In this document: piece by piece, positions 7,309-33,590 of the stretch
How the letters are laid out: each line of letters starts with the position of its first letter
Position numbering within the stretch: position 1 is the stretch's first letter
Virus record (IMG/VR): IMGVR_UViG_3300045988_177154
Location: 64,001 to 128,000 of that record
Source of the DNA: a virus
DNA: 64,000 bases
Reading direction: 5' to 3' (one strand)
Translations under genes and position numbers: made by a program
Notes under the pieces: generated by a model
The model's input: the letters and a program-made list of their open reading frames with translations, nothing else
Told to the model about the DNA's origin: nothing
Database searches by the model: none

Positions 7309-8667
7309 AAGCTTATTTACTTTTTCCTTAATTTCTTTTTTATTTGATTTTGGTTTAACTCTTTTAGTCTTTGCCTTTTTTGGTAAAGATTTTTTGAGCT
7401 TAATATTAGTAGAACGAATCGCAATATTGATAGCAGCTAATAAATCTCTATCAATTTTACCAGTCGTAAATTCAATAGTTCTATCATTAACTACTCCTAT
7501 TTCTTTCGTTATTGGGTGCTCCTTACTAGTATTAAATGCAGAAACCTTTTTTACCTCAATTCCATACATAGTGGCTTTCTCTATAATTTTAGAATGAATT
7601 TGAGAATGATTCCATTTACCACCTTGTGAATTTAACCAAGATAAATCTTCAATATGAATTGTTTTACACTTCTGCTCTAATGCTAAATTTACAATTTCGT
7701 TTGACAAAAGCTTTGCTTGATAATCTTTTGTGTTAATAATTTTATTAGAAATATTTGAATAAAGATTTTTCCAAATTTCATATTTAGATTGATTTGTTAA
7801 CCTTAAAGCTTCATAAGATTTAAGTTTATCATATAAGATTTGTTTATTTTCATAAAGTTTATTGATTTTATATTCTGTTTCTTGGCTTCGTTTTGTGTTG
7901 ACAAATTCATTACTGAAATTACCTTTTCTATCAACAACAACAGAACTAAATAATTTAATTTTACCTATATCCACACCTAAGATTTTATCTTCTAACACAT
8001 AATCCCCCACTTCATATTCATAAGAGCAAATACCTATATATTGATTATCTCTTTTACGTTTAATAAATCTAGGCTTCGCAATTCTGCCTGTAAATCTTTC
8101 ATCTATACTACTTGGAAAGATTATTTCATATTCAATCCAATCTTTTTTGCTCACTTTTATTTCACAAATATTACCTTGTTTCATTCTGAATATTTGCTTT
8201 TCTGAAATAGTATAATCAAGATTGAATACAGCGCTTCGTGCTAATTCGGGTATGGAATTATTACGTTTAATATTGGCAATTCTACTTCTTGTTGGGTAAA
8301 GTTTTAATTTGTGTAATGAATTAAATAAATCTTCATTTATGTTAAAATCATTTTTAACTAATTGATTCCAAATGATGATTGCTTCTTGTTTTGACTTTAT
8401 TTCTCGTCTGATGTTTTCAAACAAGATATACGAGTGCCAGGTTTTATTATGCAACGGCCAGTCTTTTATTCGGAATTTAAGACTATCCCTCATATCCCTC
8501 CAAACATCGCCTCTGAGTTTAGATAAATCAATTTTATCCAAGAGAGCTCTTGTTTCATCATTAGAGAGAATAAAATTTAACTCATTTTGTAAGAAATCAT
8601 AAATAGGTATAAGTTCTGATGGCATATTTATATTAAAACTTTTCCAATGAACTTTTTTCTTTTTCAT
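7171..8667 (-). CDS. tnpB: TnpB-like RNA-guided nuclease (IS200/IS605 OrfB family), 498 aa
   Basis: RuvC-like motifs ILGVDIGKIK (D), KTIHIEDLSW (E) and DRDLLAAINIA (D). No CxxC zinc-finger cysteines between motifs II and III. No tnpA nearby. Own promoter TTGAAA-17-TATAAT upstream on the minus strand (~8705-8735). Confidence 0.85.
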   Translation of the reverse strand: MKKKKVHWKSFNINMPSELIPIYDFLQNELNFILSNDETRALLDKIDLSKLRGDVWRDMRDSLKFRIKDWPLHNKTWHSYILFENIRREIKSKQEAIIIWNQLVKNDFNINEDLFNSLHKLKLYPTRSRIANIKRNNSIPELARSAVFNLDYTISEKQIFRMKQGNICEIKVSKKDWIEYEIIFPSSIDERFTGRIAKPRFIKRKRDNQYIGICSYEYEVGDYVLEDKILGVDIGKIKLFSSVVVDRKGNFSNEFVNTKRSQETEYKINKLYENKQILYDKLKSYEALRLTNQSKYEIWKNLYSNISNKIINTKDYQAKLLSNEIVNLALEQKCKTIHIEDLSWLNSQGGKWNHSQIHSKIIEKATMYGIEVKKVSAFNTSKEHPITKEIGVVNDRTIEFTTGKIDRDLLAAINIAIRSTNIKLKKSLPKKAKTKRVKPKSNKKEIKEKVNKLKGNGQIVSFLTNVLDSTVQVELGVRPLHEVLPYNSLIHYYNKLQM

Positions 8668-10409: not shown

Positions 10410-11411
10410 ATGACTTTAGTAGAGTATAAGGGTCTAACTGCCGATGTGATGTGGTGGGAAGAAGTCTCTGATGAAAAGTTAGAAGAATTAAGAAAAGAAT
10501 ATTATCAAAAACCAAGCATAAACGAAGTCAAAAAAGAATTAAAAACTATCTCTCGTGGTGGGAGCCTTATTAGTAAAGTTAATAAATATTATTTCAGAGA
10601 TTTACAAGCAAGAGTAAAGAAATGGAATAGTAAATGGGCAGTTGCTGATGTTTTTGAGAGTAATGCTCTAATGGGTATTTTTCTAGCTCGAATACACAAT
10701 CAAAATGTTTATACAAAAGAAGATGGCCCAGACATTAAGAAAATCGAAACTGCATTAAGAATTGGAGCAAAAGGAATAGCTGCACCTATTACTAATTTTA
10801 ATATTAAAAATATTGATAACTTATTGCTTTCAAAATATAATGTAAATAATAATTATTATGATTATTCTTGTGGTTGGGGAGTTAGACTTCTTTCAGCTAT
10901 GAGAAATAATGTTAATTATTTTGGTACAGACCCAAATCATGAGCTATATGAAAGATTACTTGAATTAGAAAAAGATTACAAATCAGTAGCAATGTTTCAT
11001 AACTCAACTGTTGACATTAGAAACACTGGCTCTGAAGTGCTTCATGAAGATTGGAAAAATAAAATGGGATTAGCTTTTTCAAGTCCTCCTTATTTCCTTT
11101 TAGAAGATTATAAGACTGGAGAACAATCTGCACAACAAGATACAAGTTATGAAGATTGGCAAGAATTATATTTAAGACCTACTTTTAGGAATATTAAAGA
11201 GTATCTTATTGATGAAGGTTATTTTATGATAAATATTAAGGATTATTCAAAATTCACTCTCGAAGCAGACAGCAAAAGAATTGCTATTGAAGAAGGCTTT
11301 GAATTTATTGAAAACATTCCACTTTCACCTATCAATAGATACAGTCCAAAAGATGAAAAAGTAGTCCAAAAATCAGATGAATATATTATGGTATTTAGAA
11401 AGAAGTTATAA
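10410..11411 (+). CDS. DNA methyltransferase (N6-A or N4-C, SPPY type)
   Basis: 333 aa. AdoMet motif YDYSCGWG and catalytic motif FSSPPYF. Confidence 0.75.
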   Translation: MTLVEYKGLTADVMWWEEVSDEKLEELRKEYYQKPSINEVKKELKTISRGGSLISKVNKYYFRDLQARVKKWNSKWAVADVFESNALMGIFLARIHNQNVYTKEDGPDIKKIETALRIGAKGIAAPITNFNIKNIDNLLLSKYNVNNNYYDYSCGWGVRLLSAMRNNVNYFGTDPNHELYERLLELEKDYKSVAMFHNSTVDIRNTGSEVLHEDWKNKMGLAFSSPPYFLLEDYKTGEQSAQQDTSYEDWQELYLRPTFRNIKEYLIDEGYFMINIKDYSKFTLEADSKRIAIEEGFEFIENIPLSPINRYSPKDEKVVQKSDEYIMVFRKKL

Positions 11412-11771: not shown

Positions 11772-12731
11772 ATGACTAAAACAATTAAAGGATTTATTAA
11801 AACTTTCAACAAGCACGAATTAGGAAAAGAATACAGCAAAACAAATTCTTATTTAGCTGATGCTATTAGATTTGAATTAAAAGATGTTTACAATGCTGGT
11901 TCAGATTATTCTATCATCTATCCATACATTTATGAAGTAGAAGCTAATGTTGAAGATGTTTGGAACATTTCAAAAGGACAAACATGGTTGCCTGATTATT
12001 TCCAAACTACAAAAGCTGTTGCAGTTCGTGAAGTCTCATATTTAGAATTAGTACAAGCTATTGATTTAACTTCTTCAACAAAAGAAAAATTTGAAAAAAT
12101 CTATAATGGCGATTTAACTAAAGAAGAATTTGAAACTACTTGGGCTTCTTTAACTAAGAGAAGTTTTGAAGCATTGGGCCACAATCAACGTTTTCTATAT
12201 ATTGCTTGTTTATCTCAAGATAAATATGAATTAACAAAACCTGAAAAGGAATTGTCAGAAACAACTTTAATGCTTCATGCAAAATATGGTAAATTGTTTA
12301 ATAAAGATTTACGAGTAAGTTCAAAAGTCAAAATGAACATTGCAACAGAAAATGAAATCATTAACGCTCTTGAAACAGACTTATTTGATGTTCCAAACAT
12401 TCTTGAAAATTTAGTTGAAACAGAAAATTATGATTTTGATTTTGTTCTTAAGTTATTAAAAGAATCAAATTACTTAATTTTTAATAAATTAACAACAGCT
12501 TATGGATATAACACTGGTCGTTGGGAATTTGATAAAATTGATACTAACAGAGCTAAAGCAGAATCTTATTTAAATCCAATTAAAGCTTTCAATGATTACA
12601 AAGACCATGAAGAGTTAATCTTGAAAGGATTATTATTGAATAACTTTTTAATCAAAGGAGCAGATTATTCAGAATTTGAATCTATTCTAAAAATTAAAGA
12701 AGAATTAGAAGTGGAATTAAAAACTTTATAA
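11772..12731 (+). CDS. divergent member of paralog family A (A0)
   Basis: 319 aa. YPYIYEVEANVEDVW and LYIACLSQDKYEL correspond to the family A motifs PFVYEVEVDS.D and KFHAILSQKKYEL. Confidence 0.6.
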   Translation: MTKTIKGFIKTFNKHELGKEYSKTNSYLADAIRFELKDVYNAGSDYSIIYPYIYEVEANVEDVWNISKGQTWLPDYFQTTKAVAVREVSYLELVQAIDLTSSTKEKFEKIYNGDLTKEEFETTWASLTKRSFEALGHNQRFLYIACLSQDKYELTKPEKELSETTLMLHAKYGKLFNKDLRVSSKVKMNIATENEIINALETDLFDVPNILENLVETENYDFDFVLKLLKESNYLIFNKLTTAYGYNTGRWEFDKIDTNRAKAESYLNPIKAFNDYKDHEELILKGLLLNNFLIKGADYSEFESILKIKEELEVELKTL

Positions 12732-12788
12732 GAAAAGAACAACCTAATGGTTGTTTTTCTTATGTCAAAAAAGAAAGGAGTTATTAAA

Positions 12789-13784
12789 ATGATTATTGAT
12801 TGTTATGTGTTTTCAGATGTAGCACTCAAACTAAATCACACTTATTATAACATTGATGATTACAAATTACTATTATATAACTTAAAGGATTATCGAGTTG
12901 ATTCGTTTTCAATCTTTACTTTTATTTATAAAGTAAAAGTAAATTCAGATGATGTACATTATCTTGGTAAATATGGAGTATATTCACTTAAGTATCAAGT
13001 AGTAGAAGAAGTTCCTTTTGGAGATTTTGTAGCAAAACTTTCACTTGGGGGATTAGAAAAAGCTGGACTAATGTCTATTATCAAAGGTACTATGCCCGAA
13101 GATAAAGCTATTAAAAAATATGAAGATATTCTAACTCTAAATAAGTATGGGTATTCATTAACTTTTATTCAAGCCCTCAAATTTCATGCTATACTAAGCC
13201 AAAAGAAATATGAACTACCAATCCTTTATGTAGATGAACAAGGTTGGTATTTAGTTAGATTATTTGAATATTACAATAGAAAATATGAAGCAAAAAATAC
13301 TTTGTCAAATTCTACTAATCATTGTGTAGAACAAGAAAGGATATTAGGTTCAAAAAAATTTGAGGAACATTTTGACATTCAAAATGCTACACTTGCGAAT
13401 GAAAGAGAACTTCAGACTTTTTATGATTTAATAAAAGGAAGAAAGCTAACACAAGAGAAATTTGAGCAGTGTTGTGCTGAATTTATGAATTTATTAGACG
13501 ATGATTATAGAAAGGAATATTTAGCAAAAATAGTTGTATTTTCCAATTATGAAATACCTGAAAAGTATAAAGATATATTTTTACCAGAAGCTGTATTTAA
13601 ATACCCAGATTGGATAAAAGACTTAAAAGAAGAGCATATCTCTTGGCAATATGCTGATGTAACAAGATTCCTTATGATTGGATATAAAGTGAAAAATGGT
13701 AATTACAACCTAGAATGGGCAAATTCAATTATGAATGCTAGAAGCATTTTAAAGAACGACAATTACAAATATATAGAAATTTAA
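12789..13784 (+). CDS. paralog family A protein (A2)
   Basis: Start moved to ATG 12789 (AAAGGAG RBS), giving the family N-terminus MIIDCYVFS. Has the KFHAILSQKKYELP, RKLTQEKFEQCC, GYKVKNGNY and YKYIE motifs. Confidence 0.7.
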   Translation: MIIDCYVFSDVALKLNHTYYNIDDYKLLLYNLKDYRVDSFSIFTFIYKVKVNSDDVHYLGKYGVYSLKYQVVEEVPFGDFVAKLSLGGLEKAGLMSIIKGTMPEDKAIKKYEDILTLNKYGYSLTFIQALKFHAILSQKKYELPILYVDEQGWYLVRLFEYYNRKYEAKNTLSNSTNHCVEQERILGSKKFEEHFDIQNATLANERELQTFYDLIKGRKLTQEKFEQCCAEFMNLLDDDYRKEYLAKIVVFSNYEIPEKYKDIFLPEAVFKYPDWIKDLKEEHISWQYADVTRFLMIGYKVKNGNYNLEWANSIMNARSILKNDNYKYIEI

Positions 13785-13833
13785 TTTAAAAAAGCAACTA
13801 AAAAGTTGCTTTTTATTTTTTTACAAAAATGTG

Positions 13834-13862
13834 TTGACAAACTAAAAATCATATTATATAAT
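13834..13862 (+). promoter_or_regulatory. sigma70-like promoter
   Basis: TTGACA 13834-13839, 17 nt, TATAAT 13857-13862 (TATATAATATAA context). Confidence 0.6.
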
Positions 13863-13901
13863 ATAACTACAATAAAGAAATGAAATGAGAGATAAACAAA
13901 A

Positions 13902-14681
13902 ATGGAAATTGCAAAACAATACCACGCAAAAATCAATACAGCCGGAGTTGCTTCAGCTTATAATATTTCTACTGTAACTCGAACTCTTAGCCAGGCAGTA
14001 AAAGATGCTAATCTTGCACTTCATTCAGTAGAAGTACTAACAGAAGTTCCAACAGATAACAAATTAAAAGCAGAAGTACTTGCTGCTCATACTTATCGAG
14101 TAACATGGCAAGGAAAACTAGACATTGAAGTGATTCTCCTTGTTAAATTAGTAAATGGTGCTCAAGTACTAACTATTGATGATGATTTTGCTAATATTGA
14201 ATTGACTAATTCAATTACTATTGAACCACAAGGGCTTATCCGTATGGTTGAAAATGGTGAATTATTCCTTGAAGCTGAATACCAACGTGGATTTGTTTGG
14301 AGCCACGAACACAAAGAAGAATTTTTGCTGGATTGGATTAAAGGTGGAGTTATTATTACTCCTTACCTTGTAAGTTATTACAATGGTGATAACCACATTT
14401 ACGAAGTTCTTGATGGCAAACAACGTTTACAAACAGTTTATGAATTTCTAACAAACAAAATTGCTGTTAAAGGATTGTTGTTTGAAGAATTGCTAGACTA
14501 TGATAAACGCAAAATCCTTAATCGTAGAATTGTAGGCTTGACTATGACTCAAAAATATGGTGACAACGCATATGAGCGCCCAGACATGAAAACTCTTGTA
14601 AATGCTTTCGTGAATTTCAATAAAGGAATTACAGTTGATGAAGAAGTAATCGCCAAAGCAAAAGAATTGATTGAAGAATAA
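13902..14681 (+). CDS. DUF262 (ParB/Srx-fold, GmrSD N-terminal-like) domain protein
   Basis: 259 aa. YQRGFVWS ... LDGKQRLQT matches the QR..VW / DGQQR signature of DUF262. Confidence 0.65.
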   Translation: MEIAKQYHAKINTAGVASAYNISTVTRTLSQAVKDANLALHSVEVLTEVPTDNKLKAEVLAAHTYRVTWQGKLDIEVILLVKLVNGAQVLTIDDDFANIELTNSITIEPQGLIRMVENGELFLEAEYQRGFVWSHEHKEEFLLDWIKGGVIITPYLVSYYNGDNHIYEVLDGKQRLQTVYEFLTNKIAVKGLLFEELLDYDKRKILNRRIVGLTMTQKYGDNAYERPDMKTLVNAFVNFNKGITVDEEVIAKAKELIEE

Positions 14682-14705
14682 GCAACCCCACGGTTGCTTT
14701 TTTCT
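14681..14705 (+). terminator. rho-independent terminator
   Basis: AGCAACC-CCAC-GGTTGCT followed by TTTTTTC. Confidence 0.7.
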
Positions 14706-14747
14706 TTTAAAAGTTATATAATATAATAAAGAGCGAAAGAAAGAGGT

Positions 14748-15743
14748 ATGAAATTGTTTATTGATTGTTATTTCTTATCAAACATTGTTAGAAAACCTGA
14801 CCATATTTACTATACTAATTATGATTATATGTTTGGCGAATTTTTCTATTTTGATTTAAACCTTTGTAATTTAGACAATATACGTTTTAACACGTACCCT
14901 TATAAAGTTAGAGTTGACTCAAATGATGTGTTTTATATTGCTAATAATGGCTTAAGAGCACTCAAATTTCAAATAGTAGAAGAAGTTAATATTTTAGATT
15001 GGATTGAAGCTTCATCTTTGAAAGATAGAGCAAAGAGTCATTTGAAATCAATTTGTAATGGTTCTGTACTTCAAGATAAAGTGTTAGAATTTTATGATAA
15101 AACTATTATAACTCCAACTGCTTTATTGACTACAGCTCAAATTTTTAAATTGCATGCTATTTTGAGCCAGAAAAAATATGAATTGCCTACAAGAGTAATC
15201 ACTAATGGAAATAAAAGCTATTTGCGAGCTTATGAATTTTATGGCAGAGAATATGAATTTGATTCTAATCATAAACCTTTTTTCAAAGTGTTTGAAGCTG
15301 AAGCTGCCTTGGGGTCTAAAAGATTTGAATATATTGAAAATGAAGATAGTGAAATCCTTATGTCAGATGTGTCAAGTTTTTTAAAATTAGTAGCATCAAG
15401 AAAATTAACTCAAAATCAATTTGAGTATTGTTGTATGTACAGTCCTTTTTTAACTACAGCTGACAAAAAGAAATTTGTTAATACAGCATTACGAGCAAAT
15501 TATGAAATTCCTCATGAGGGCAGACACTTATTCTTTCCCGAAATCATATTTAAACACCCAAGTTGGGTAACAGAATTAAAGACGAAACATTTAGACAATG
15601 ATTATGCTAGAGCTAGATTACTCTTGTTAGGCTATAAATTGAAAGATTATAATTATCATCATTCTTATTGGGCTACTAATATTGAAAACACTAGACGAAT
15701 TTTTAAAAATGCCGTGTATCAATATATAGAACTTGATGATTAG
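14748..15743 (+). CDS. paralog family A protein (A3)
   Basis: 331 aa; family A motifs (YPYKVRVDSNDVF, KLHAILSQKKYELP, RKLTQNQFEYCC, GYKLKDYNY, YQYIE). Confidence 0.7.
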   Translation: MKLFIDCYFLSNIVRKPDHIYYTNYDYMFGEFFYFDLNLCNLDNIRFNTYPYKVRVDSNDVFYIANNGLRALKFQIVEEVNILDWIEASSLKDRAKSHLKSICNGSVLQDKVLEFYDKTIITPTALLTTAQIFKLHAILSQKKYELPTRVITNGNKSYLRAYEFYGREYEFDSNHKPFFKVFEAEAALGSKRFEYIENEDSEILMSDVSSFLKLVASRKLTQNQFEYCCMYSPFLTTADKKKFVNTALRANYEIPHEGRHLFFPEIIFKHPSWVTELKTKHLDNDYARARLLLLGYKLKDYNYHHSYWATNIENTRRIFKNAVYQYIELDD

Positions 15744-15759
15744 ATAGAAAGAGAAAACT

Positions 15760-16740
15760 ATGAAAATTAAATGCTATTTATTTACAGGTATAGCAAAACA
15801 AGAAAATCATACTTATTATTCATTAGGAGATAATCGAGGTTCAAGATTTTATTATAATTTGAGAGAGGGACTCAATAGAGAAGAAATTAAAATAGCTCCA
15901 TTTGTTTATGAAGTAGAGTTAGACTCAGAAGATATATGTACAATTACTTCTTATTATTTAGAAACAACAAAATTTAAATTAGTAAGAGCAGTTGAATTTA
16001 GAGAAGTTGTAGAAGTTTTAGATGTTTCAAGTAGAACTCGAAACGAATTGAATGCTATCCTTAGATGTGTGAGTGATAAAGCACAAATCATTCAACAATA
16101 TAAAAAATTGCTTTCAAAAGATTATAGTGATTTATCTAGGATAGAGTTTTATAAATTTATTGCTATTATAAGTCAAAAACATTATAAATTACCACTAATT
16201 GAATTTTCTTGCTTTAGAGCATTTAAATATGTTCGGCTATTGGAATTTTATAATCAGCCACATAGATATGCTCTTGCTGGAAGGGGTTATAGTTTTGTAG
16301 CTTATAATAAAGAAAAATTTTATGGAAGTAGAATATTTGAAAATCTGTCAGATTGTACTATAAATGATTTGCTTAGAGAACACGATATTAGGGTACTTTT
16401 ACAGACTAGGAAATTGTCGCAGAAAAAATTTGAAGAATATTGTGAATATAAGTTTAAAAATAAAGATAAGATTTATAATGCAGATGAATGTGTGGGGGCT
16501 GGATATGAAATTCTACCAAAATATAAAGAGCAATTCTACCCCTATATAATCTATTCTAATCCTGAGTTAGCATTAGATTTGGTAAAAAAAGGCTTGAGCA
16601 CCAATGATTATCAAACTTTATTACTTTTAAGAAAAGGATATAAAATCAGAGATTTTGATTATGATAATAATTATAGAGTCTTTGCTACAACACAAAAAGC
16701 CCAAAAGATTTTCATGAAAAATGATTATAAATATATTTAA
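15760..16740 (+). CDS. paralog family A protein (A4)
   Basis: 326 aa; PFVYEVELDSEDI, KFIAIISQKHYKLP, RKLSQKKFEEYCEY, GYKIRDFDY, YKYI. Confidence 0.7.
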   Translation: MKIKCYLFTGIAKQENHTYYSLGDNRGSRFYYNLREGLNREEIKIAPFVYEVELDSEDICTITSYYLETTKFKLVRAVEFREVVEVLDVSSRTRNELNAILRCVSDKAQIIQQYKKLLSKDYSDLSRIEFYKFIAIISQKHYKLPLIEFSCFRAFKYVRLLEFYNQPHRYALAGRGYSFVAYNKEKFYGSRIFENLSDCTINDLLREHDIRVLLQTRKLSQKKFEEYCEYKFKNKDKIYNADECVGAGYEILPKYKEQFYPYIIYSNPELALDLVKKGLSTNDYQTLLLLRKGYKIRDFDYDNNYRVFATTQKAQKIFMKNDYKYI

Positions 16741-16757
16741 GAGAAAGGATAAGAATT

Positions 16758-17741
16758 ATGGCTGTTAAATGCTATTTATTTACAAGTGTGGCTAGACAAT
16801 TAAATCATACTTATTACTCATTAGAATATAATAAATCTTTATACTTTTACCATAATTTAAATGATTATCATAAAGAAGTGAATAAAATTCTATTAAATCC
16901 CTTTGTTTATGAAGTAGAAGTTGAGCCTAAAACAGTGATTGCTTGTGATTCCTTAGGTTTAGTTGCAACGGAATTTAAACTTGTTAGAGAAGTAGAACTT
17001 ACAGAACTTATCAATGCTTATAAATTTTCAATAAAAACGAAAAATGAAATCAATTCTATTCTTAATGGGCTTGCTGATTCATCAGAAGTAATTTCTTTAT
17101 ATAAAAGATTTTTTAAAAAATCTAAATGGGACCTGTCTAAAATTGAAAAATTCAAATTCTTAGCTATATTGAGTCAAAATCACTATAAATTACCTGTTAT
17201 GAAGATTCGTGAAAATTCTGGTATGGAATATGTTAGGATATTGAAATTCTTTAACAAACCTTACATACCCGCCTTTAGAAGCAATGATAGTACGTTTGAT
17301 AGATTTATTGAAATAGAAGAACTTTATGGAAGCAAAGATTTTGAAACTGGTGTAGAATTACCTATGAAAGAACTGGTTTGCCATATTAACTTGAAACAAT
17401 ATATAGAAACAAGGAAATTATCCCAAGAACAATTTGAAGAGTATTGTGAATATATGTTTACTGAAGAAAGAACAATATATTACACTTCTCATGCTATAGC
17501 AGCTGGATATAAAATTTTACCAAAATACAAAAAACATTTTTATCCATATTTAATTTATTCTGACCCCGAAATGGCATTAGAATTGCTTAATAAAAGGAAT
17601 TTAACTCGTACTGCAGTTATTTATTTCTATGAAAAGAATTATAAAATAGGTGATTACAATTACTCTAATGATAAAGTTAGAGAAACAAAAGCAATCTTTG
17701 TAAAAGAAGATGATTATAAATGTATTGAAGTAGCAACTTGA
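16758..17741 (+). CDS. paralog family A protein (A5)
   Basis: 327 aa; PFVYEVEVEPK, KFLAILSQNHYKLP, RKLSQEQFEEYCEY, AAGYKILPKYK. Confidence 0.7.
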   Translation: MAVKCYLFTSVARQLNHTYYSLEYNKSLYFYHNLNDYHKEVNKILLNPFVYEVEVEPKTVIACDSLGLVATEFKLVREVELTELINAYKFSIKTKNEINSILNGLADSSEVISLYKRFFKKSKWDLSKIEKFKFLAILSQNHYKLPVMKIRENSGMEYVRILKFFNKPYIPAFRSNDSTFDRFIEIEELYGSKDFETGVELPMKELVCHINLKQYIETRKLSQEQFEEYCEYMFTEERTIYYTSHAIAAGYKILPKYKKHFYPYLIYSDPEMALELLNKRNLTRTAVIYFYEKNYKIGDYNYSNDKVRETKAIFVKEDDYKCIEVAT

Positions 17742-17797
17742 TAGTTGCTTTTTCTTTTTGTTTATTATATAATATAATAGAGCGAAAGGAGTTAATT

Positions 17798-18781
17798 ATG
17801 ATTATAAAATGCTATTTGTTTTCAGATAGAACTAGACAATTAGGTCATACTTATTATTCATTAGGAATGGGAGATTATTTGTATTTTGAGCTTAGCTCAT
17901 ACCAAGATTATTTTCACATTGGTGACCCATTTGTTTACGAAGTAGAAGTTGATACAGACAAAATATTGTATTGTGATAGTGAAAGTGTACACTCTATTGA
18001 GTACAAGATAAGTAGAGTAATCAAATTTGAAGAATATATTTTTACGTTTGAGTTTCCAAAAGATGATTTAAAAGAATTACTTAATATACTTGATGGAAAT
18101 ATTGACAAAAATGAAATGATAGAATTTTATACTGCAATCATTAGTAAAGATGTTTACAAAGTAAATAGGTTTGAGCAATTAAAACTTTTTGCAATATTAA
18201 ATCAAACAAAATATGAGCTGCCAGAAGTAACAATAGAAAAAGAATTTCAAATGGATTACTATGTTAAGCTTTTAATTTATTACAATAAACCTTATCAAGC
18301 TATTTGTAAACATTCCGCCAAAATTTCTGGGTTTAGAAAAGAACTTAATAAGCAGAGAATGCGGGGAACTACTACTTTTGAAACAATTTCAGATGAAATC
18401 ACCGAAAGATTAGCTTATAATTATTTTTTAGATGAATATATACTAAATAGACAACTTACTCAAGAACAATTTGAAAGTTTATGTGAGTACTTCAAGTGGA
18501 ATACACATATTTTTAAATTTAGAATAAAACTTAGTTCAATTGCAGCTGGTTACAAAATTCTACCAGAACATAGAAGTCTTTTTTATCCTTTTGTGCTTTA
18601 TCATGGAATAGAAGATAATTTGGATATAATTGACCGTGAGAAAAAGCCTGATGAATTATTAAAGATTTTATTTAACTGCGGTTATAAATTTAAAAATGTT
18701 GATTATAGCGACATGCCTTCACATGATAAAATTACTGAAGCAAAAATCATCTTTCAAAAAGGATTTAAATATATAGAATAA
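17798..18781 (+). CDS. paralog family A protein (A6)
   Basis: Start moved to ATG 17798 (AAAGGAG RBS), giving MIIKCYLFS. PFVYEVEVDTD, KLFAILNQTKYELP, RQLTQEQFESLCEY, AAGYKILPEH. Confidence 0.7.
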   Translation: MIIKCYLFSDRTRQLGHTYYSLGMGDYLYFELSSYQDYFHIGDPFVYEVEVDTDKILYCDSESVHSIEYKISRVIKFEEYIFTFEFPKDDLKELLNILDGNIDKNEMIEFYTAIISKDVYKVNRFEQLKLFAILNQTKYELPEVTIEKEFQMDYYVKLLIYYNKPYQAICKHSAKISGFRKELNKQRMRGTTTFETISDEITERLAYNYFLDEYILNRQLTQEQFESLCEYFKWNTHIFKFRIKLSSIAAGYKILPEHRSLFYPFVLYHGIEDNLDIIDREKKPDELLKILFNCGYKFKNVDYSDMPSHDKITEAKIIFQKGFKYIE

Positions 18782-18925: not shown

Positions 18926-18954
18926 TTGACAAATGAAATACTATATAATATAAT
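18926..18954 (+). promoter_or_regulatory. sigma70-like promoter
   Basis: TTGACA 18926-18931, 17 nt, TATAAT 18949-18954. Confidence 0.55.
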
Positions 18955-18983: not shown

Positions 18984-19409
18984 ATGGCTACTACTGAAGA
19001 ATTACTAACAGAAGCTAGAGAATATTTTGCTCAATTGGAAAAACCAAATGAAGAATTAAATGTTGACTATAATTCTGATTATGTGTTATTTGATGAAATA
19101 GATAAAGAAAATCTAAATAAAAATGGTAGACGAGTATTGCTACTTGACTTAAATAACGGAATGAAAGCTGCATTTTTACTAATACCAGATATGGAACAAA
19201 ATCGTTTTACTTTATCTAAGATTAAAGAAACTGCATCTGTACGATTACTTACAAAAGAAACAAAAAATACAGTAAAACAATTTACTTCTCATAAAGGATT
19301 TTTCCCTACTCTAACTTTAGAACAACAAGGGGATATTACTGGAGCTGTTGTTAAATTAAAAGATGGTTCTTATGCAACAATTACTGAACAATTGGAGGTA
19401 ATTAAATAA
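18984..19409 (+). CDS. hypothetical protein, first gene of the ThiF/JAB cassette
   Basis: 141 aa with no cysteine, so not an E2-like enzyme. Stop overlaps the ThiF start (ATAATG). Confidence 0.6.
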   Translation: MATTEELLTEAREYFAQLEKPNEELNVDYNSDYVLFDEIDKENLNKNGRRVLLLDLNNGMKAAFLLIPDMEQNRFTLSKIKETASVRLLTKETKNTVKQFTSHKGFFPTLTLEQQGDITGAVVKLKDGSYATITEQLEVIK

Positions 19410-20089
19410 TGCTGAAAATTAAAGAAGGCCGAAAATATTATATTGTACTAGGTGCTGGTGGAACTGGGTCTTGGCTTGCACAATTCCTATCTAAAATTGA
19501 AGTTCCAGTATACCTTATTGATGGTGATGTGGTGGAACCTAAAAATGTTCTCCGTCAAAACTTTGTCAATGAAGAAGTAAATATGAGCAAAGCAGAAATT
19601 GCTAAAAAATGGGATTTTGCTTATGTGCCTGAATTTTTGAGTGATACTTCTATTATTGATGAAATTATTGCTCAAGAAGAAGGCACACCAGTACTTGTAG
19701 GTTGCTTAGATAACAATGCTACTCGTAAAATTGCTCAAGATGTATTCTACAATCCTAATTACAAAGACATTTTGTGGTTAGACGGTGGAAATGCAGAGCG
19801 ACATGGTCAAGCTTATGTTGCGGCTAAATATGATAATGAAGTTCATTATGAAAGTCCTATTGCTCTTGACCCAGCATTCCAAAACTTTGAAGGTGATGAA
19901 CGTAGACCAGACCAGATTTCATGTGCTGAACAATCTGAGTCTGCGCCACAAAACGTAACTGCAAACGTTACTAGTGCTACATTGTTATTTAATCTAATTA
20001 ACTTGATTGAAGAAAATGCTATGTTGCTTGGAAATAAATTTATGTTCCACACAAAATTATGTAGTATGACAACAACAGAAATTGTTTGA
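19409..20089 (+). CDS. ThiF/MoeB-family E1-like adenylyltransferase (small, PRTRC-ThiF-like)
   Basis: 226 aa. Rossmann loop YIVLGAGGTGSW and DGDVVEPKNVLRQNF (ThiF D.D.V..SNL.RQ signature). Confidence 0.75.
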   Translation: MLKIKEGRKYYIVLGAGGTGSWLAQFLSKIEVPVYLIDGDVVEPKNVLRQNFVNEEVNMSKAEIAKKWDFAYVPEFLSDTSIIDEIIAQEEGTPVLVGCLDNNATRKIAQDVFYNPNYKDILWLDGGNAERHGQAYVAAKYDNEVHYESPIALDPAFQNFEGDERRPDQISCAEQSESAPQNVTANVTSATLLFNLINLIEENAMLLGNKFMFHTKLCSMTTTEIV

Positions 20090-20114
20090 CAAAGTTTGAT
20101 TAACCTGATAAAAT
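20086..20114 (+). promoter_or_regulatory. sigma70-like promoter (extended -10)
   Basis: TTGACA 20086-20091, 17 nt, TGATAAAAT ending at 20114. Confidence 0.5.
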
Positions 20115-20145
20115 AAATTTATAAATATGAAAGGAGTTCATTGTC

Positions 20146-20310
20146 ATGGCTTTTAATCCTAGTCAGATTAAATTTGTTCAGTACAAAGGAGAAAAATTTC
20201 CCTTGAATGGAGCAGATTATAATAAAGTTCTTGATTTGCTGAAAATTCCAAAATCAGCAACAGTAACAATTGTAGGTAATACAATTATTGTTACCACTCG
20301 AAAAAGTTGA
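20146..20310 (+). CDS. short PRTRC_C-like protein (54 aa), paralog of the N-terminus of 20537-21070
   Basis: AAAGGAG RBS. QIKFVQYKGEKFPLNGADYNKVLDLLKIPKSATVTIVGNTIIVTTRKS aligns with EIVFQNNRFPLNGASVDDVLALLNVPDNAELAVEGTALLITEKSG. Below the ORF-track cutoff. Confidence 0.6.
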   Translation: MAFNPSQIKFVQYKGEKFPLNGADYNKVLDLLKIPKSATVTIVGNTIIVTTRKS

Positions 20311-20319
20311 TAAAAATAG

Positions 20320-20348
20320 TTGACAAACGCTAAATCACTTGTTATAAT
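20320..20348 (+). promoter_or_regulatory. sigma70 consensus promoter driving the stand-alone omega-RNA-like unit
   Basis: TTGACA 20320-20325, 17 nt, TATAAT 20343-20348. Homology to the tnpB 3' region starts 5 nt downstream. Confidence 0.65.
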
Positions 20349-20352
20349 GAAA

Positions 20353-20488
20353 TTAAAGGAAATAATCAAATTGTGTTATTTCTAATAGATGTACCATATT
20401 TAATCATTAAATTTGGAGTCTATCCTCTATTTGAGGTATTACCTTGCAACTCACTTATTTATTACAATAAGTTACAGGTGTAAGCAAC
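20353..20488 (+). ncRNA. stand-alone omega-RNA-like scaffold (copy of the tnpB-1 3' end / right end)
   Basis: Aligns over ~136 nt with the reverse complement of 7166-7308, for example GAGGTATTACCTT(G/A)CAACTCACTTATT(T/C)ATTACAATAAGTTACAG(G/A)TGTAAGCAAC. The frame equivalent to tnpB hits a stop after ~11 codons, so conservation is not protein-level. Confidence 0.7.
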
Positions 20489-20536
20489 AATGTAAATATA
20501 AAATAAAAAATAAAATTTTGAAAGGAGCTATTTAAA

Positions 20537-21070
20537 ATGGCTACAAATATTTATGAAAACGTTACGGAGATTGTTTTCCAAAACAATCGCTTCCCACTGA
20601 ATGGTGCTTCTGTTGATGATGTACTTGCATTGCTAAACGTCCCAGACAATGCAGAATTGGCAGTAGAAGGTACTGCTCTTCTAATTACAGAAAAATCTGG
20701 TACAAAGGGTGCTGACCCTGACCCAGAATTGATTGCTAAGTTGGCTGCTACTTTTGGTGGCGAAGCAATCAAAGGTGCTAGTGTGAAACTCCACCGTGCT
20801 TCAAATGGTAAATGGGTACCAAAAATCCCTGGTTTCACTCTTGATGAAGTTGCTTACTTGCTTGAAAAAGATGTAGAACTTTCAGAAGAAATGACTGATG
20901 AACAAGTTGAAATTGCTCGTCAAGCTCTTGAACAACGTGATGCTGAAATTGAAGCACAACGTGTTGCAGAAAAACAAGCTTTAGTAACAGAAGCTCTTGA
21001 AGGCTCAGGTCTTAACTTCACTTATGACCAATTGGTCTGTTTGCAAAAAGCTCTTGATGCTATTCGCTAA
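20537..21070 (+). CDS. PRTRC_C-like domain protein with acidic helical C-terminal half
   Basis: 177 aa. The N-terminal ~55 aa end in GTKG, as I recall for PRTRC system protein C. Visibly higher GC and GCT/GGT/CGT-rich codons than its neighbours. Confidence 0.55.
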   Translation: MATNIYENVTEIVFQNNRFPLNGASVDDVLALLNVPDNAELAVEGTALLITEKSGTKGADPDPELIAKLAATFGGEAIKGASVKLHRASNGKWVPKIPGFTLDEVAYLLEKDVELSEEMTDEQVEIARQALEQRDAEIEAQRVAEKQALVTEALEGSGLNFTYDQLVCLQKALDAIR

Positions 21071-21098
21071 AAACAACACACTATTTAACAAAAAAAGA

Positions 21099-21127
21099 AA
21101 ATCACACTTCAGTGTGATTTTTTTATT
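21099..21127 (+). terminator. rho-independent terminator
   Basis: AAATCACAC-TTCA-GTGTGATTT followed by TTTTATTTTT. Confidence 0.7.
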
Positions 21128-21145
21128 TTTTAATACACTTTTCGG

Positions 21146-21174
21146 TTGACAAATTCATAATTGTTTGATAGAAT
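21146..21174 (+). promoter_or_regulatory. sigma70-like promoter (extended -10)
   Basis: TTGACA 21146-21151, 17 nt, TGATAGAAT ending at 21174. Confidence 0.55.
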
Positions 21175-21204
21175 ATATAATATAATAAGAAAGGGGAAAA
21201 TACA

Positions 21205-21942
21205 ATGCCTATTTTAGAACTAGACGCTAGTCAATATGTGAAGCAAGGTCGAATTTTTAAGAAATTTGATTCTAATTTGCTTGATTCATATATGGACGGT
21301 AGACAAAATAACTATAATATTAACTTAGCAGAATTAGATGACCAAATTTCTGATGGTATCGTTTATGCTGACCGAAATGGTAAAATGATTTACAAATTTG
21401 GAGCTAAGAAAATTATTCAAACAGCAATCACAAATGGATTGGAAATTAGTGGGTTGTCTAAGGATTTAGAAATGAAGCATTATTCATTTTGGGTACCTGA
21501 TTTATATTTTGTTTCATTTTACAGTTTTAATCCAAATGAAGATTTATATATTGCATACCGTAGCAAAGATGAAGAATTTATTTGCTTGACAAATATTTGG
21601 CCTGACGGTTCGAGCTATGCAGAGGATTATTTCCCTAATGGTGACCGATTAACTCTTAAAAGACTTTGTAAGGGTAGCATGATGTCAGATGTTAGTTCGA
21701 GCGATTATGACGCATGGAGAAATAATGCTGTCACTCGTGCTAGTCAATTTGTAAATAAATTTGTAAGTGCTCGAGGAAATTCTGACTTAGATTTTGTTGG
21801 TAGTGCATTGCGAAGCAAAGTACCGAGTCATAATATTAAAAAATGTGCAGTATTTCTTGGCACAATTACAAAAGAACAAGAAAATGTAAACACTTATGAA
21901 GAGTTCATGGAATGGACTAAAAATACAAAATGGTTTAAATAA
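21205..21942 (+). CDS. hypothetical protein (ThiF/JAB cassette)
   Basis: 245-aa ORF, GGGGAAAA RBS. Confidence 0.6.
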   Translation: MPILELDASQYVKQGRIFKKFDSNLLDSYMDGRQNNYNINLAELDDQISDGIVYADRNGKMIYKFGAKKIIQTAITNGLEISGLSKDLEMKHYSFWVPDLYFVSFYSFNPNEDLYIAYRSKDEEFICLTNIWPDGSSYAEDYFPNGDRLTLKRLCKGSMMSDVSSSDYDAWRNNAVTRASQFVNKFVSARGNSDLDFVGSALRSKVPSHNIKKCAVFLGTITKEQENVNTYEEFMEWTKNTKWFK

Positions 21943-21965
21943 AAAGAAAGTGAGAAATAAATAAA

Positions 21966-23144
21966 ATGAAATTAGTAGAACTTTACTCATCAGAACAATT
22001 TAAAAAAGAATCTGACCGTGGTATGATTAAAACAGTTATTGTCGGAAAAGACGGTACGTATGAAGAACAAAATTCTTGGTTAGGTACTTCTCTGAAAAAA
22101 GTACATGATTATGGAGTTATTACATTCCCCGAAGTTACTGAATTTGTAAAAGTAAAAAATGTAAATGTTACAAAAATTCCAGCAATTGCCATTAAAACAG
22201 TAATGAAATGGTACAAAGACATTACTGATAAGAATGGAGAAGAAGCACAAGTAAACTTTTATCTTAAAAGTCGTAAATTGGGCGGAACTCCACAAGATGG
22301 TATTTACAAATTAACTTATACTGAAGAAGATGAATTTGGAATTGAAACAGAAAAGACAGTTAAATTAGAAGATATTCCGGGGCTTAACTTTTGGAATGAT
22401 GATGTATTCTCATATACACCAAAACAAGAAAATTCACACGGCCAAACAAGTACAGATGACCCAATCTATACAGCTCTAAATCAACAATATGGAATGTTTT
22501 TGGAAACACATTCACATAACAGCATGCCAGCATTTTGCTCAAGTACTGACTATGCAAATTCTCAAAATGACGCTGTTCAATTAGTATTTGGGAAATTCAA
22601 AGGCTCTCATATTGAAATGTATAACTGGATTACAGTAAGTCAAAAGCTTAAGGAAGGTTTTGATGCTCATGTATTGGAAAAATTTGTAGAATTTCCAACT
22701 TATTCTGTAAATACAGCAGAAAAGAAATTGAACTTTGATTTTTCTGTACTTTCAGGTGTTGATGAAACAATTCTTGAAGAATGGGATAAACAAGTTATCA
22801 AACCTAAACCTATTGTACGTTCATTTGGATATGGTAGTTATGGTGGCGGATATGCTAACACAATTTGGTCTACTTCAGATACAACTCGTTCACCTTGGAC
22901 TCCAAAACATGGTTCTACTGTAACATCATACAAATCAACTCCAGCTAAGATTGAAGAAGGTTCTGAAAAAGCAATTATTGATTTACTAGAAATGTATGGC
23001 AATGATGCAATTAGTGTGATTGAAAATCTAGTAAGTATTTACAAATCAGCTATTTCAAATGCTACTTATGTAAGCAAGACTGAAACAGAAATTCAAGATG
23101 AAATTGTCACTCTTGTATCGGATGCAATTGATGAACTTTTCTAA
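21966..23144 (+). CDS. JAB/MPN+ (JAMM) metallopeptidase domain protein
   Basis: 392 aa. HSHNSMPAFCSSTD fits the JAMM motif HxH-x7-S-xx-D. Confidence 0.7.
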   Translation: MKLVELYSSEQFKKESDRGMIKTVIVGKDGTYEEQNSWLGTSLKKVHDYGVITFPEVTEFVKVKNVNVTKIPAIAIKTVMKWYKDITDKNGEEAQVNFYLKSRKLGGTPQDGIYKLTYTEEDEFGIETEKTVKLEDIPGLNFWNDDVFSYTPKQENSHGQTSTDDPIYTALNQQYGMFLETHSHNSMPAFCSSTDYANSQNDAVQLVFGKFKGSHIEMYNWITVSQKLKEGFDAHVLEKFVEFPTYSVNTAEKKLNFDFSVLSGVDETILEEWDKQVIKPKPIVRSFGYGSYGGGYANTIWSTSDTTRSPWTPKHGSTVTSYKSTPAKIEEGSEKAIIDLLEMYGNDAISVIENLVSIYKSAISNATYVSKTETEIQDEIVTLVSDAIDELF

Positions 23145-23246
23145 ACGCTAAATTTTGAGAAAAGTTATCCAAAATTGGATAACTTTTTCTTGATTTTTTA
23201 AGCATTATATTATATAATAGAATTACCGAAAGAAAGGTAGGACAAT

Positions 23247-24436: not shown

Positions 24437-25417
24437 ATGGAAAACAAAACAGAATTAGTAAAACTACTTAATCAAATTTCAACGCTTTTAGAAGGTGAAG
24501 AAGAGCGCTTTAAACATTTGCTAGAACAATTGAAAACTGCTATCAATACAAAAAGTATTGCTCGAGAAGCAGAAACATTAGCAATGAACTTGATTGAAGA
24601 ACGTTATGGTAAATTACCAGAGATTACTAAAATTCAGATTGGTAATAATAAACCAAAAGAAATTAAAGGCTTGACTCACTCTTCTTTTAAATCCATTTTG
24701 ACTTTGCTTGCAAATGGAGAAAATGTTTTGCTTAATGGTCCGTCAGGTACTGGTAAAAACGTGCTTGGTAATCAAATTGCTGAAGCATTAGGATTGGAAT
24801 TTTACTGTACTCCAGCTATTCGACAAGAATATAAATTGAGTGGCTTTATTGATGCAAACGGAAACTTTGTTGAAACTCCATTCTACAAAGCTTGGACAAA
24901 TGGCGGTGTTTATCTATTTGATGAAATGGATGCTTCAGATGCTACCGTTATTCTTAATATTAACTCTGCTCTAGCAAATGGTTATTATGAATTTCCTATC
25001 GGATTGAAAAAGAAACATAAAGATTTCTATATTCTAGGTGCAGGCAATACTTTAGGAAATGGTGGCGACCGTATCTATACTGCTCGTGAAGAATTAGATG
25101 CTTCTACAATTGACCGATTTGCTGTAGTACCATTTGGATATGATGAAAAATTAGAGCGAGAACTTGCTGGAAATGAAAAGATTTATGAATTTATTATCGC
25201 AGTTCGAAAAGCAATTGAAGAAACTGGACTTCGCTATGTTGTATCTATGCGAGCGACAAAAAGTTTAGCACAATTGTATGGCAAAATGGATATTCAAGAA
25301 CTTGTTAAATATGTTGTATGTAGAAATATGCGAACAGCAGACATTAAAACAATTCTTTCACGTTGTAAATGCCCAGTAGATAATCCATTCTATATTGCTC
25401 TTAAAAATATTGATTAA
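24437..25417 (+). CDS. AAA+ ATPase (AAA_5 / MoxR-CobS-like)
   Basis: 326 aa. Walker A LLNGPSGTGKN, Walker B VYLFDEMDAS. Confidence 0.7.
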   Translation: MENKTELVKLLNQISTLLEGEEERFKHLLEQLKTAINTKSIAREAETLAMNLIEERYGKLPEITKIQIGNNKPKEIKGLTHSSFKSILTLLANGENVLLNGPSGTGKNVLGNQIAEALGLEFYCTPAIRQEYKLSGFIDANGNFVETPFYKAWTNGGVYLFDEMDASDATVILNINSALANGYYEFPIGLKKKHKDFYILGAGNTLGNGGDRIYTAREELDASTIDRFAVVPFGYDEKLERELAGNEKIYEFIIAVRKAIEETGLRYVVSMRATKSLAQLYGKMDIQELVKYVVCRNMRTADIKTILSRCKCPVDNPFYIALKNID

Positions 25418-32690: not shown

Positions 32691-33590
32691 ATGAATAAAA
32701 TTAAATTATTAAGTGTTTTAACTTTATCTACCGTAGTTTTGGGTGCCTGTTCTTTGTTACCTAAATCAACAGAAAATAAAACTGAAACAACTGAACAAGT
32801 AACAACTACTAGTAAAGAAGATTCAGTTAAAGAGAAAGTCACAAAGGATGCTACAGTTCTTTTAGATTCTGTCTTAACTACAGATAATGCTAAATTTAAG
32901 AAAGTTTATGGGGAAACCTATGACAAATGGACTGATGCAATTATTGCCGTTCAAACTAGTGAAAAAATTAAGGAAGATGGTCTTACTCCAGCTTCTGAAT
33001 ATTCTGTACAATGGGTAAAAGATTTTCCAATTGAAACACCAGAAGAAACAATTTCTAACTTCCTTAAAGTAAGACGAAATCTCTTTCAGAAAATTGTAAA
33101 TTACAATATTAAAGATGTTGTAATTGATGATTCGGGAAATACTGCAACTGTTACATTTACATCTAAGAAGTTACATTCTCTTGGTTTAGCCTCATCAGTA
33201 AGAACAGTTCTAACTGAACTAATTGGGGGAATTGATAACCTCGGTAAATATAACCAAGCAGGTTCTTCTGAAACCGTTAAACGTTATCAAAACTTACTTT
33301 CTTATTGGATTTTCCGTCACTTATACAAACATGACTTTGCCATTTACTCTAATGTTGATGCTAACTTATCTCATGTTCCATTTACAAAAGGTGAATTTGA
33401 CACTGAGATTAAACTCACAAAGGATAAAGATGGCAATTGGGTGATTTCTCAAGATGATTATAAGACTTTGCTATCAGAATTGGTAGATAGAACTGAAGGC
33501 TATGATACAATAGACCGTTCAGGACTTCCTAATAAGAAAGCAACTGACTCATCTGAAACATCTACAGACAAAGATAAATCAAAAATTTAA
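32691..33590 (+). CDS. lipoprotein
   Basis: 299 aa. Signal peptide with lipobox LSTVVLGAC; Ser/Thr/Lys-rich linker; AGGAG RBS. Confidence 0.75.
   Translation: MNKIKLLSVLTLSTVVLGACSLLPKSTENKTETTEQVTTTSKEDSVKEKVTKDATVLLDSVLTTDNAKFKKVYGETYDKWTDAIIAVQTSEKIKEDGLTPASEYSVQWVKDFPIETPEETISNFLKVRRNLFQKIVNYNIKDVVIDDSGNTATVTFTSKKLHSLGLASSVRTVLTELIGGIDNLGKYNQAGSSETVKRYQNLLSYWIFRHLYKHDFAIYSNVDANLSHVPFTKGEFDTEIKLTKDKDGNWVISQDDYKTLLSELVDRTEGYDTIDRSGLPNKKATDSSETSTDKDKSKI

Follow-up and report, generated by a model that had tools for sequence, protein, structure and literature searches.

A predicted ubiquitin-like precursor and its enzymes in a putative, strongly diverged relative of the type 6d/PRTRC cassettes

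We describe a cassette of six genes in IMG/VR record IMGVR_UViG_3300045988_177154, which is 324,925 bp long and is classed in IMG/VR as a virus with direct terminal repeats. Its bases 64001-128000, a stretch of 64,000 nucleotides (nt), are called the window here, and positions are those of the window unless another source is named. The cassette encodes a small ThiF-type, E1-like enzyme, a JAMM metallopeptidase (JAB), two proteins with a predicted ubiquitin-like (Ubl) domain, a candidate E2-like carrier and a cysteine-free protein. The catalytic residues are intact, the Ubl-like domain ends in an invariant junction, the cassette is conserved, and among related loci JAB is associated with Ubls that are encoded as precursors. 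With moderate confidence we suggest that p177, the longer of the two Ubl proteins, is a Ubl precursor which JAB would cut after Gly58, that the ThiF protein would activate the freed Ubl, and that p245 may serve as E2-like carrier. In our view the most interesting feature of this putative, new and strongly diverged 6d/PRTRC variant is that its mini-Ubl would be encoded as part of a fusion precursor, with SGTKG invariant at the junction.

In the type 6d operon of Iyer and co-workers (2006), genes for a Ubl with a conserved Gly at its C-terminus and for E2-like, E1-like and helical proteins are joined by one for a JAB that has an N-terminal domain (PMC1779556), and the taxa listed for it agree with the carriers of PRTRC (PMC1779556). 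We regard type 6d as equivalent to the PRTRC cassette of TIGRFAMs (TIGR03734-03742), the components being Prok_Ub/PRTRC_C, Prok-E2_D/PRTRC_B, JAB-N plus JAB/PRTRC_A, PRTRC_ThiF, the helical protein and ParB. The six open reading frames (ORFs) of the present cassette, all on the + strand between 18984 and 23144, were each found where an earlier note on this DNA, made from its letters alone, had placed them as a cluster, and the set is conserved:

18984-19409, + strand: p141, 141 amino acids (aa), cysteine-free
19409-20089, + strand: ThiF226, ThiF-type E1-like adenylyltransferase, 226 aa
20146-20310, + strand: p54, a stand-alone Ubl-like domain without a Gly tail
20537-21070, + strand: p177, a Ubl-like domain plus a C-terminal extension
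20537-20710, + strand: p177 residues 1-58, a mini ubiquitin-like domain with the end EKSGTKG
20711-21070, + strand: p177 residues 59-177, a variable acidic linker and then a C-terminal domain of a hairpin plus helices
21205-21942, + strand: p245, candidate E2-like carrier with Cys155-x-Gly157
21966-23144, + strand: JAB392, JAMM/MPN+ metallopeptidase of 392 aa, extended at the N-terminus, the tail helical and of low complexity

The Ubl-like domain and its enzymes

A domain of about 50 residues is common to p177 and p54, and the two proteins are paralogous over the N-terminus of p177 (33% identity, E 5e-10). Across 14 homologues residues 9-59 of p177 are almost invariant, and EKSGTKGA is fully so; beyond the Ubl come an acidic linker, which varies, and then another conserved domain. 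The GTKG end to which attention had been drawn earlier is the conserved terminus of the Ubl unit. When a profile of the domain was run against 1.84 billion representative proteins only 17 matches were obtained. In one of them two tandem Ubl copies, both with the end QKSGTKG, precede a C-terminal domain like that of p177, and three others have the same Ubl, ending KSGTKG, on three different C-terminal domains. The end SG(T/G)KG recurs in all distant relatives, those with tandem copies or swapped C-terminal domains included, and is thus a predicted module boundary. The AlphaFold2 (AF2) model of p177, of low confidence (pLDDT 66), has a beta-beta-alpha-beta-beta order at residues 11-50 (pLDDT about 65), disorder at 53-83, and then a hairpin and helices. 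As for p54, it is 52-62% identical in close relatives, where it ends ...IVS, and it is not present in the more distant group represented by locus L012.

The Ubl domain ends in TKG, and the earlier statement that there is no C-terminal Gly-Gly holds. The non-canonical activation chemistry that had been proposed along with it is harder to maintain, as canonical activation would still be likely once cleavage bares Gly58. The note had also remarked on a higher GC content of p177 and on codon usage typical of high expression. The GC content is indeed the highest of the block (0.40; others 0.26-0.35). We reject the codon usage, which is ordinary: GC is 0.64 at the first codon position and 0.22 at the third (GC3), the latter resembling that of the neighbours, and the excess lies at positions 1 and 2 because the protein is rich in Ala, Glu, Gly, Val and Asp, not because of codon choice.

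ThiF226 matches the Pfam ThiF family at E 2e-13 (50 bits; cut-off 28) and contains both GAGGTGS and DGDVVEPKNVLRQNF, which bears out its description as a small ThiF-family adenylyltransferase. Its best NCBIfam match is PRTRC_ThiF (TIGR03736), with 49.3 bits under a cut-off of 144.75; it also scores with the ThiS and MoaD adenylyltransferase models of NCBIfam, and its profile matches E1 enzymes, TcdA and MccB in the PDB. The GxGGxG motif, Asp40, Asp101-Asn102, Arg106 and Cys172 (in SCAE) are invariant in ThiF226 and six relatives of 29-77% identity, and Arg49 is also kept in ThiF226. The E1-E2 models of PADLOC cover only residues ~10-67, the nucleotide-binding stretch, and in the ThiF226 sequence we found no rhodanese domain, no CxxC zinc motifs and no extra domain. 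The nucleotide site is intact and a cysteine is conserved, as expected of a type 6d E1.

JAB392 has the pattern HSH-x7-S-xx-D, and Glu93, His182, His184, Ser192 and Asp195 are invariant in eight relatives, in agreement with the JAMM peptidase read from the letters at first. Its sole NCBIfam match at E <= 0.1 is PRTRC_A (E 0.0026, 17.4 bits against a cut-off of 101.8, JAMM region only), tblastn links it to PRTRC_A-domain proteins of Bacillus phages at E 2e-12 and 2e-9, and Pfam Prok-JAB gives no match to JAB392, yet reaches 25.3 bits on the aligned relative in locus L039. Its JAMM motif is complete and it is extended at the N-terminus, both of which are traits of a type 6d JAB.

The earlier note had seen no E2-like protein in the cluster, which is probably wrong. 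p245 lies directly upstream of JAB, the slot that Prok-E2_D occupies in relatives, and has a single cysteine, in Cys155-x-Gly157, that is invariant among 11 homologues down to 25% identity. Comparison by hhalign with 64 PRTRC_B-like proteins gave E 0.0012 (probability 20%), aligning the Cys motif and a downstream F-I-S-x3-N-x-D-L block; with four PRTRC_B-like proteins E was 0.12, or 0.021 for a deeper query. The AF2 model (pLDDT 61, pTM 0.60) consists of a beta-meander, Cys155 and helices. The PRTRC_B model matches none of the 11 p245 homologues at E <= 1 and does match the relatives in L009, L010 and L002. We suggest that p245 may be an E2-like carrier, homology to Prok-E2_D being hinted at.

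JAB and the form of the Ubl at ThiF loci

ThiF homologues of 28-40% identity are found in Bacillus jumbo phages, Firmicute megaplasmids and 80 IMG/VR contigs. We grouped 88 ThiF loci into 25 clusters at 70% identity. In 12 clusters a protein of 105-188 aa ending ...KG-stop is encoded directly upstream of ThiF, and a JAB within 9 kb was found in none of these, compared with 11 of the 13 remaining clusters (Fisher p = 2e-5). Every Ubl that we could identify in the JAB-bearing clusters has an internal Gly, that is, it is a precursor, with the exception of L030, where JAB is found together with a Gly-ended Ubl (ATKG end) ~2.8 kb upstream of ThiF. The precursors are of three types: polyUbl (L001, L002, L038-41), fusion of the Ubl to a C-terminal domain (the window and L012), and fusion of the Ubl to JAB with an internal QKKG, KTKG or AKKNG (L025, L027, L010). 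Because JAB accompanies precursor Ubls and is missing where the Ubl already ends in Gly, we see in this pattern the strongest argument that JAB would mature Ubl precursors; the rule itself predicts what the job of JAB is.

The ready-made Ubls without a JAB nearby form a large family, 105-188 aa long, directly upstream of ThiF and with the end (Q/K)(H/F)(K/R/T)KG-stop. They occur in most of L028-L102, which are smaller IMG/VR contigs, and in a Thermoanaerobacterium plasmid (L009:6576-6950).

At the head of their cassettes the Bacillus phages vB_BceM_WH1 and vB_BauM_KLEB27-3 and contigs L038-41 have a gene for a protein in which a unit of 57 residues with the end (A)G(T/V)KG is repeated head to tail 4-6 times before a short cap (L001:781-1680, which is gp211 of vB_BceM_WH1; L002:718-1425; L039:3253-4332). 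The polyUbl of L039 matches Prok_Ub with 103 bits over six stretches, and every repeat of WH1 and of KLEB27-3 matches PRTRC_C at E ~4e-4. A profile of the window-type Ubl reaches a full-sequence E of 6.7e-13 on L039, which is the sum of six near-identical matches. The window Ubl and the polyUbl repeats are alike in size, predicted secondary structure and terminal motif; both come in tandem or fused form, and both are encoded near homologous enzymes. WH1 gp211 is annotated as a virion structural protein, and the Ubl or its conjugates may be present in virions; no paper on vB_BceM_WH1 or on PDB entries 9EGB-9EGD was found in the literature searched.

Conservation of the gene set in relatives, which had been put forward as a check, was found: the set stays syntenic at 37-77% protein identity. 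By far the most constrained parts of the cassette are ThiF and the Ubl domain of p177 (residues 1-59), with identities of 92-96% and 85-89%, respectively, in close relatives and of 77% and 63% in the L012 group. In close relatives and the L012 group, in this order, the values are 73-75% and 47% for JAB, 59-71% and 37% for p141, and 58-71% and 38% for p245, and p177 as a whole is 42% identical in the L012 group. Most ThiF neighbours in L012 are 27-58% identical, and an AAA_5 protein is 67% identical. Adjacency of ThiF and JAB recurs in unrelated phages and plasmids, and Prok-E2_D/PRTRC_B, encoded upstream in loci of ThiF homologues, was found in 23 of the 25 ThiF clusters. A third group of contigs, 260-317 kb in size, has a ThiF 54% identical to that of the window, followed by two Ubl-fusion genes whose identical 56-aa domain ends SGTKG and is joined to different tails, one of them the Pfam KTSC domain (L104:5771-7456; L109, L110:10001-11686). 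The cassette gave no match to phage genomes by blastn, and scans of viral contigs with P0058 and P0049 gave none.

Proposed mechanism and its alternatives

In the scheme that we infer, which runs from cleavage through activation and the thioester steps to an E2 role of p245 and the targets, p177 would be a precursor consisting of a 58-residue mini ubiquitin-like domain and a 119-residue extension. The JAMM enzyme JAB392 would cut it after Gly58, between SGTKG and the following A, and ThiF226 would adenylate the bared Gly58 and probably load the Ubl onto Cys172. The Ubl would then move to a protein target, either directly or via Cys155 of p245, and JAB392 could possibly also undo the modification. 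p54, which is without a Gly tail, would not be activatable and may be a regulator or a decoy.

Several observations weigh against this scheme. None of the cassette proteins reaches the threshold of a curated Ubl, E2 or PRTRC model. Structure prediction, which had been recommended earlier as a check for a beta-grasp, did give the beta-beta-alpha-beta-beta order in the p177 domain, but at low pLDDT, and a Foldseek search of the p177 model against the PDB gave no match below E 0.6 and no beta-grasp; the same search with p245 likewise gave no match below E 0.6 and no UBC fold, and the link between p245 and Prok-E2_D is not significant. The window Ubl obtains only 5-9 bits per repeat, over the last ~22-34 residues, against the repeats that match Prok_Ub, and hhalign of the window Ubl with the polyUbl repeats gives E 0.0017 and a probability of 15%; the direct link between the two appears weak at the level of sequence. 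The ThiF clusters are phylogenetically non-independent, and the association of JAB with precursors may partly reflect shared ancestry. Furthermore, the third group of contigs has ThiF and Ubl fusions and no JAB or p245 within 10 kb.

This last group could point to a different arrangement, in which there is no cleavage and no self-tagging and the N-terminal domain serves permanently as the adaptor by which p177 and further cargo domains dock onto ThiF or another partner. ThiF would then carry out an adenylation like that of MccB or TcdA, both of which its profile matches, and JAB would remove the tags attached by Bil or CBASS Cap2 of the host, the whole being an anti-defence module. Identical N-terminal domains on different C-terminal domains would suit a docking tag, and the neighbouring orphan methylase, DUF262 and PARG/macro genes look like genes of establishment or anti-defence. 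We nevertheless find this unlikely, since the invariant SGTKG junction is the very motif that stands between polyUbl repeats, where only cleavage makes sense, and since JAB tracks the precursor Ubls and is missing with Gly-ended Ubls, which would be unexpected for a host-directed deconjugase. Alternatively, the cassette could be a sulfur-carrier system: a ThiS/MoaD/CysO-like domain would have its Gly bared by the JAMM enzyme, as for QbsD/QbsE and Mec+/CysO, and would be adenylated by ThiF and thiocarboxylated, so that a cofactor, tRNA or DNA modification would receive sulfur and proteins would not be tagged. An E1, a JAMM enzyme and a small Gly-ended carrier without a recognisable E2 are the classic sulfur-carrier layout (PMC1779556), and both the scores of ThiF226 with ThiS and MoaD adenylyltransferase models and the lack of a demonstrable E2 fold in p245 are in line with it. 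On the other hand, the Ubl ends in TKG and not GG, ThiF226 has neither a rhodanese domain nor CxxC zinc motifs, and family scans of the cassette proteins found no sulfurtransferase, desulfurase or PP-loop enzyme within the cassette. The Prok-E2_D of nearly all clusters of relatives and the polyUbl arrays of some are, moreover, conjugation-type features, and we give the sulfur-carrier reading only a small chance. That unrelated genes happen to lie together and that the similarity of a small domain is due to chance would explain why curated models fail and why the per-repeat similarity is weak. It would not account for synteny that persists at 37-77% protein identity, for ThiF-JAB adjacency in unrelated phages and plasmids, or for ThiF-Ubl adjacency in the third group, and we disfavor it as very improbable.

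We favor, then, the reading of p177 as a Ubl precursor matured by JAB392. Type 6d/PRTRC has been known from computational analysis since 2006, and we found no experimental work on it in the literature searched; it is the one major bacterial Ubl/E1/E2/JAB operon type for which no bench work was found there, whereas Bil, Bub and CBASS have recently been shown to conjugate proteins. With an E1 of 226 aa, a Ubl of 58 aa and a precursor with one defined cleavage site, the present cassette would be a compact test case.

Gene layout, carrier element and known systems

The following signals and non-coding features lie around the six genes:

18926-18954, + strand: promoter-like site before p141-ThiF, TTGACA-17-TATAAT, 12/12
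20086-20114, + strand: promoter-like site before p54, 11/12, extended -10
20320-20348, + strand: promoter-like site before the p177 leader, 12/12, extended -10
20353-20495, + strand: p177 leader, non-coding and omega-RNA-like, a copy of a TnpB-like gene's 3' end
21095-21124, + strand: terminator-like hairpin past p177, 13-pair stem plus T run
21146-21174, + strand: promoter-like site before p245-JAB, 11/12
23159-23188, + strand: intrinsic-terminator-like hairpin past JAB

The arrangement suggests four putative transcription units (p141-ThiF, p54, p177 and p245-JAB), the promoter sites being matches to a consensus pattern whose total in the region is not above that of shuffled sequence. p177 has a consensus promoter and a terminator hairpin to itself, which we count in favor of the proposed scheme. 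Because the stop codon of p141 overlaps the start codon of ThiF (ATGA), these two genes are probably translationally coupled. The p141 translation is free of cysteine, as had been claimed. The protein is confined to this group of elements, L012 included, and has no relation to the small upstream 'X' proteins of relatives in profile-profile comparison, just as the C-terminal domain of p177 has none to their 'Y' proteins. No match to p141, and no meaningful match to p54, p177 or p245, was found in Pfam, NCBIfam, PHROGs or PADLOC, and sequence-profile searches of the PDB with p177, p141 and p245 gave nothing below E 0.04.

The leader of ~190 nt between the promoter at 20320 and the start of p177 is, over ~150 nt, ~86% identical to the reverse complement of 7150-7320. 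Its counterpart is the 3' end of a TnpB-like gene at 7171-8667 on the - strand, 13 kb away. In the relative L007 a complete OrfB_IS605 gene (L007:4547-5536) lies between ThiF and p54.

Upstream of the cassette, at 11772-18781, is an array of seven tandem paralogues of ~320-347 aa, kept in the same position in close relatives; a Pfam scan of two of them gave no family match. This unrelated array is interrupted by the DUF262 gene (family now GmrSD_N; 13902-14681, 56.9 bits against a cut-off of 33.2), which is where it had been noticed before. As the ParB of the cassette we reject it: it belongs to a different ParB-fold family, and TIGR03734 has no match in the element. Downstream follow a CobS-like AAA_5 ATPase (phrog_249) at 24437-25417 and a DUF7192 protein at 26104-27147, separated by 686 nt; synteny of both with the cassette extends as far as the L012 group, where they are 67% and 58% identical. 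Establishment or anti-defence functions are possible for a microbial PARG plus macro-domain protein at 29298-30083 and an orphan N6/N4 DNA methylase at 10410-11411. Between 30083 and 37715 there is one ORF of at least 100 aa only (32691-33590), and GC is raised to 0.32-0.38.

The whole element has a GC content of ~29%. A VirB4-like AAA_10 ATPase is encoded at 288429-289460 of the record (158 bits), and a PASTA protein, a bifunctional transglycosylase-transpeptidase (a penicillin-binding protein, PBP) and a sortase are encoded in the window at 55049-58497 and 60987-61748. Capsid and portal models (PF05065, PF04860) gave no match in the element, three structural models having been tried in all, so that divergent genes could escape; the terminase model PF03237 reached 14 bits only, under its cut-off, and the VirD4 model gave no match. 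Because no capsid or portal gene was matched and the terminase score is this low, with a VirB4-like ATPase, a sortase and a bifunctional PBP present instead, the phage context assumed at first is doubtful, and we reject it. These features suggest an Inocle-type, conjugative giant plasmid as the carrier and not a phage, its host probably being streptococci of the mouth. PRTRC systems usually reside on plasmids and integrative and conjugative elements, a distribution that a plasmid carrier fits.

The Inocle plasmids of oral Streptococcus are circular, 245-395 kb in size and of ~24-32% GC, and encode VirB4/VirD4, sortase A and a bifunctional transglycosylase (PMC12340149). The 325-kb element may be one of them, judged by its size, GC, VirB4-like ATPase, sortase and bifunctional PBP, and the VirD4 of Inocles is not matched in it. 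Plasmids of this type have been reported in the saliva of most people, the majority of their genes being without assigned function (PMC12340149), and neither ThiF nor ubiquitin is mentioned in the paper that describes them (PMC12340149). Our proposal would be the first hypothesis for an Inocle gene block. A wider and more tentative proposal, which we consider possible rather than probable, is that oral streptococcal giant plasmids, together with related jumbo phages, have a protein-tagging system of their own, in which a tag of ~58 residues is made only as precursors (polyUbl arrays, or a Ubl joined to exchangeable cargo domains), released at SGTKG by a dedicated JAMM enzyme and activated by a minimal E1. 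If so, the tag might modify proteins of the host or of the element during establishment, or counter defence.

Judged by its genes, the cassette is a strongly diverged relative of type 6d/PRTRC and is not a member by the curated definitions. Checks with PRTRC_A/B/C and ThiF profiles had been proposed, and no PRTRC model reaches its cut-off in the cassette. PRTRC_C matches neither p54 nor p177 and has no match in the six frames of the element at E <= 10; Prok_Ub, Prok-E2_D (PF14460) and the PRTRC ParB (TIGR03734) have no match anywhere in it; and PRTRC_E and PRTRC_F were not listed at E <= 0.1 in an NCBIfam scan of ten cassette and neighbour proteins, a dedicated search of the whole element not having been made. 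Because curated matches to PRTRC_C, Prok_Ub, Prok-E2_D and PRTRC_parB are missing in the element, the tie to known families rests on relatives, whose loci correspond in layout to type 6d. Of the two PRTRC_C-like N-terminal domains in the earlier note, the paralogy and the GTKG end stand and the match to the PRTRC_C model does not. The kinship with PRTRC that the note had seen survives as the core idea of an E1, a JAB and a Ubl, with PRTRC_ThiF as best NCBIfam match, and fails as membership.

The cassette is like 6d/PRTRC in its small ThiF-type E1 with a conserved Cys, its N-extended JAB, its small predicted Ubl with a conserved Gly, its ~240-aa Cys-bearing protein directly upstream of JAB and its carriage by a mobile element. 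It differs in that no component reaches cut-off, there is no PRTRC ParB, the genes stand in another order, with ThiF preceding those of the Ubls, the Ubl has fewer residues (~50), ends in SGTKG and is fused to a 119-aa extension, an extra paralogue lacks the Gly tail, and the E2-like role of p245 is that of a candidate. The cassettes of Bacillus jumbo phages (vB_BceM_WH1 gp211-gp216, Edson, vB_BauM_KLEB27-3 gp199-gp194) and of L038-L041 have a ThiF 30-34% identical to that of the window, a homologous JAB and the same (A/S)G(T/V)KG end on a Ubl made as a precursor requiring a peptidase. In contrast to the window they belong to true phages, have 4-6 tandem repeats that match Prok_Ub/PRTRC_C directly and a recognisable Prok-E2_D, and are ordered polyUbl-X-Y-E2-JAB-ThiF. 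Compared with the sulfur carriers ThiS and MoaD, the window Ubl ends in TKG and not in Gly-Gly, and ThiF226 is without a rhodanese domain or Zn-binding CxxC pairs.

Bub (6E), Bil (Type I; Type II = 6C) and CBASS Cap2/Cap3 follow the same logic of E1, peptidase and Ubl (PMC11601596, PMC10557695, PMC10097602). In Bub operons a peptidase matures a Ubl fusion (PMC11601596), and a conserved Gly lies inside the Ubls of Type II Bil (PMC10557695); across these systems the Ubl is matured by trimming of the residues or of the fused protein after the conserved Gly, as we propose here. Their E1s are larger multidomain or E2-fused proteins, whereas ThiF226 is minimal. They lie in chromosomal defence islands and have demonstrated anti-phage roles, whereas the present cassette is on the mobile element itself, and such carriage by plasmids and phages turns round the common view that ubiquitin-like systems serve to defend the host. 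With the eukaryotic precursors polyubiquitin, Ub-L40 and Ub-S27a there is analogy only, with no detectable sequence kinship and a single Gly after Lys at the window end in place of Gly-Gly; these are likewise head-to-tail or N-terminal fusions with the activating Gly at the junction, and if our proposal is true, the cassette and its relatives would be a counterpart of the polyubiquitin and ubiquitin-fusion genes on prokaryotic mobile elements.

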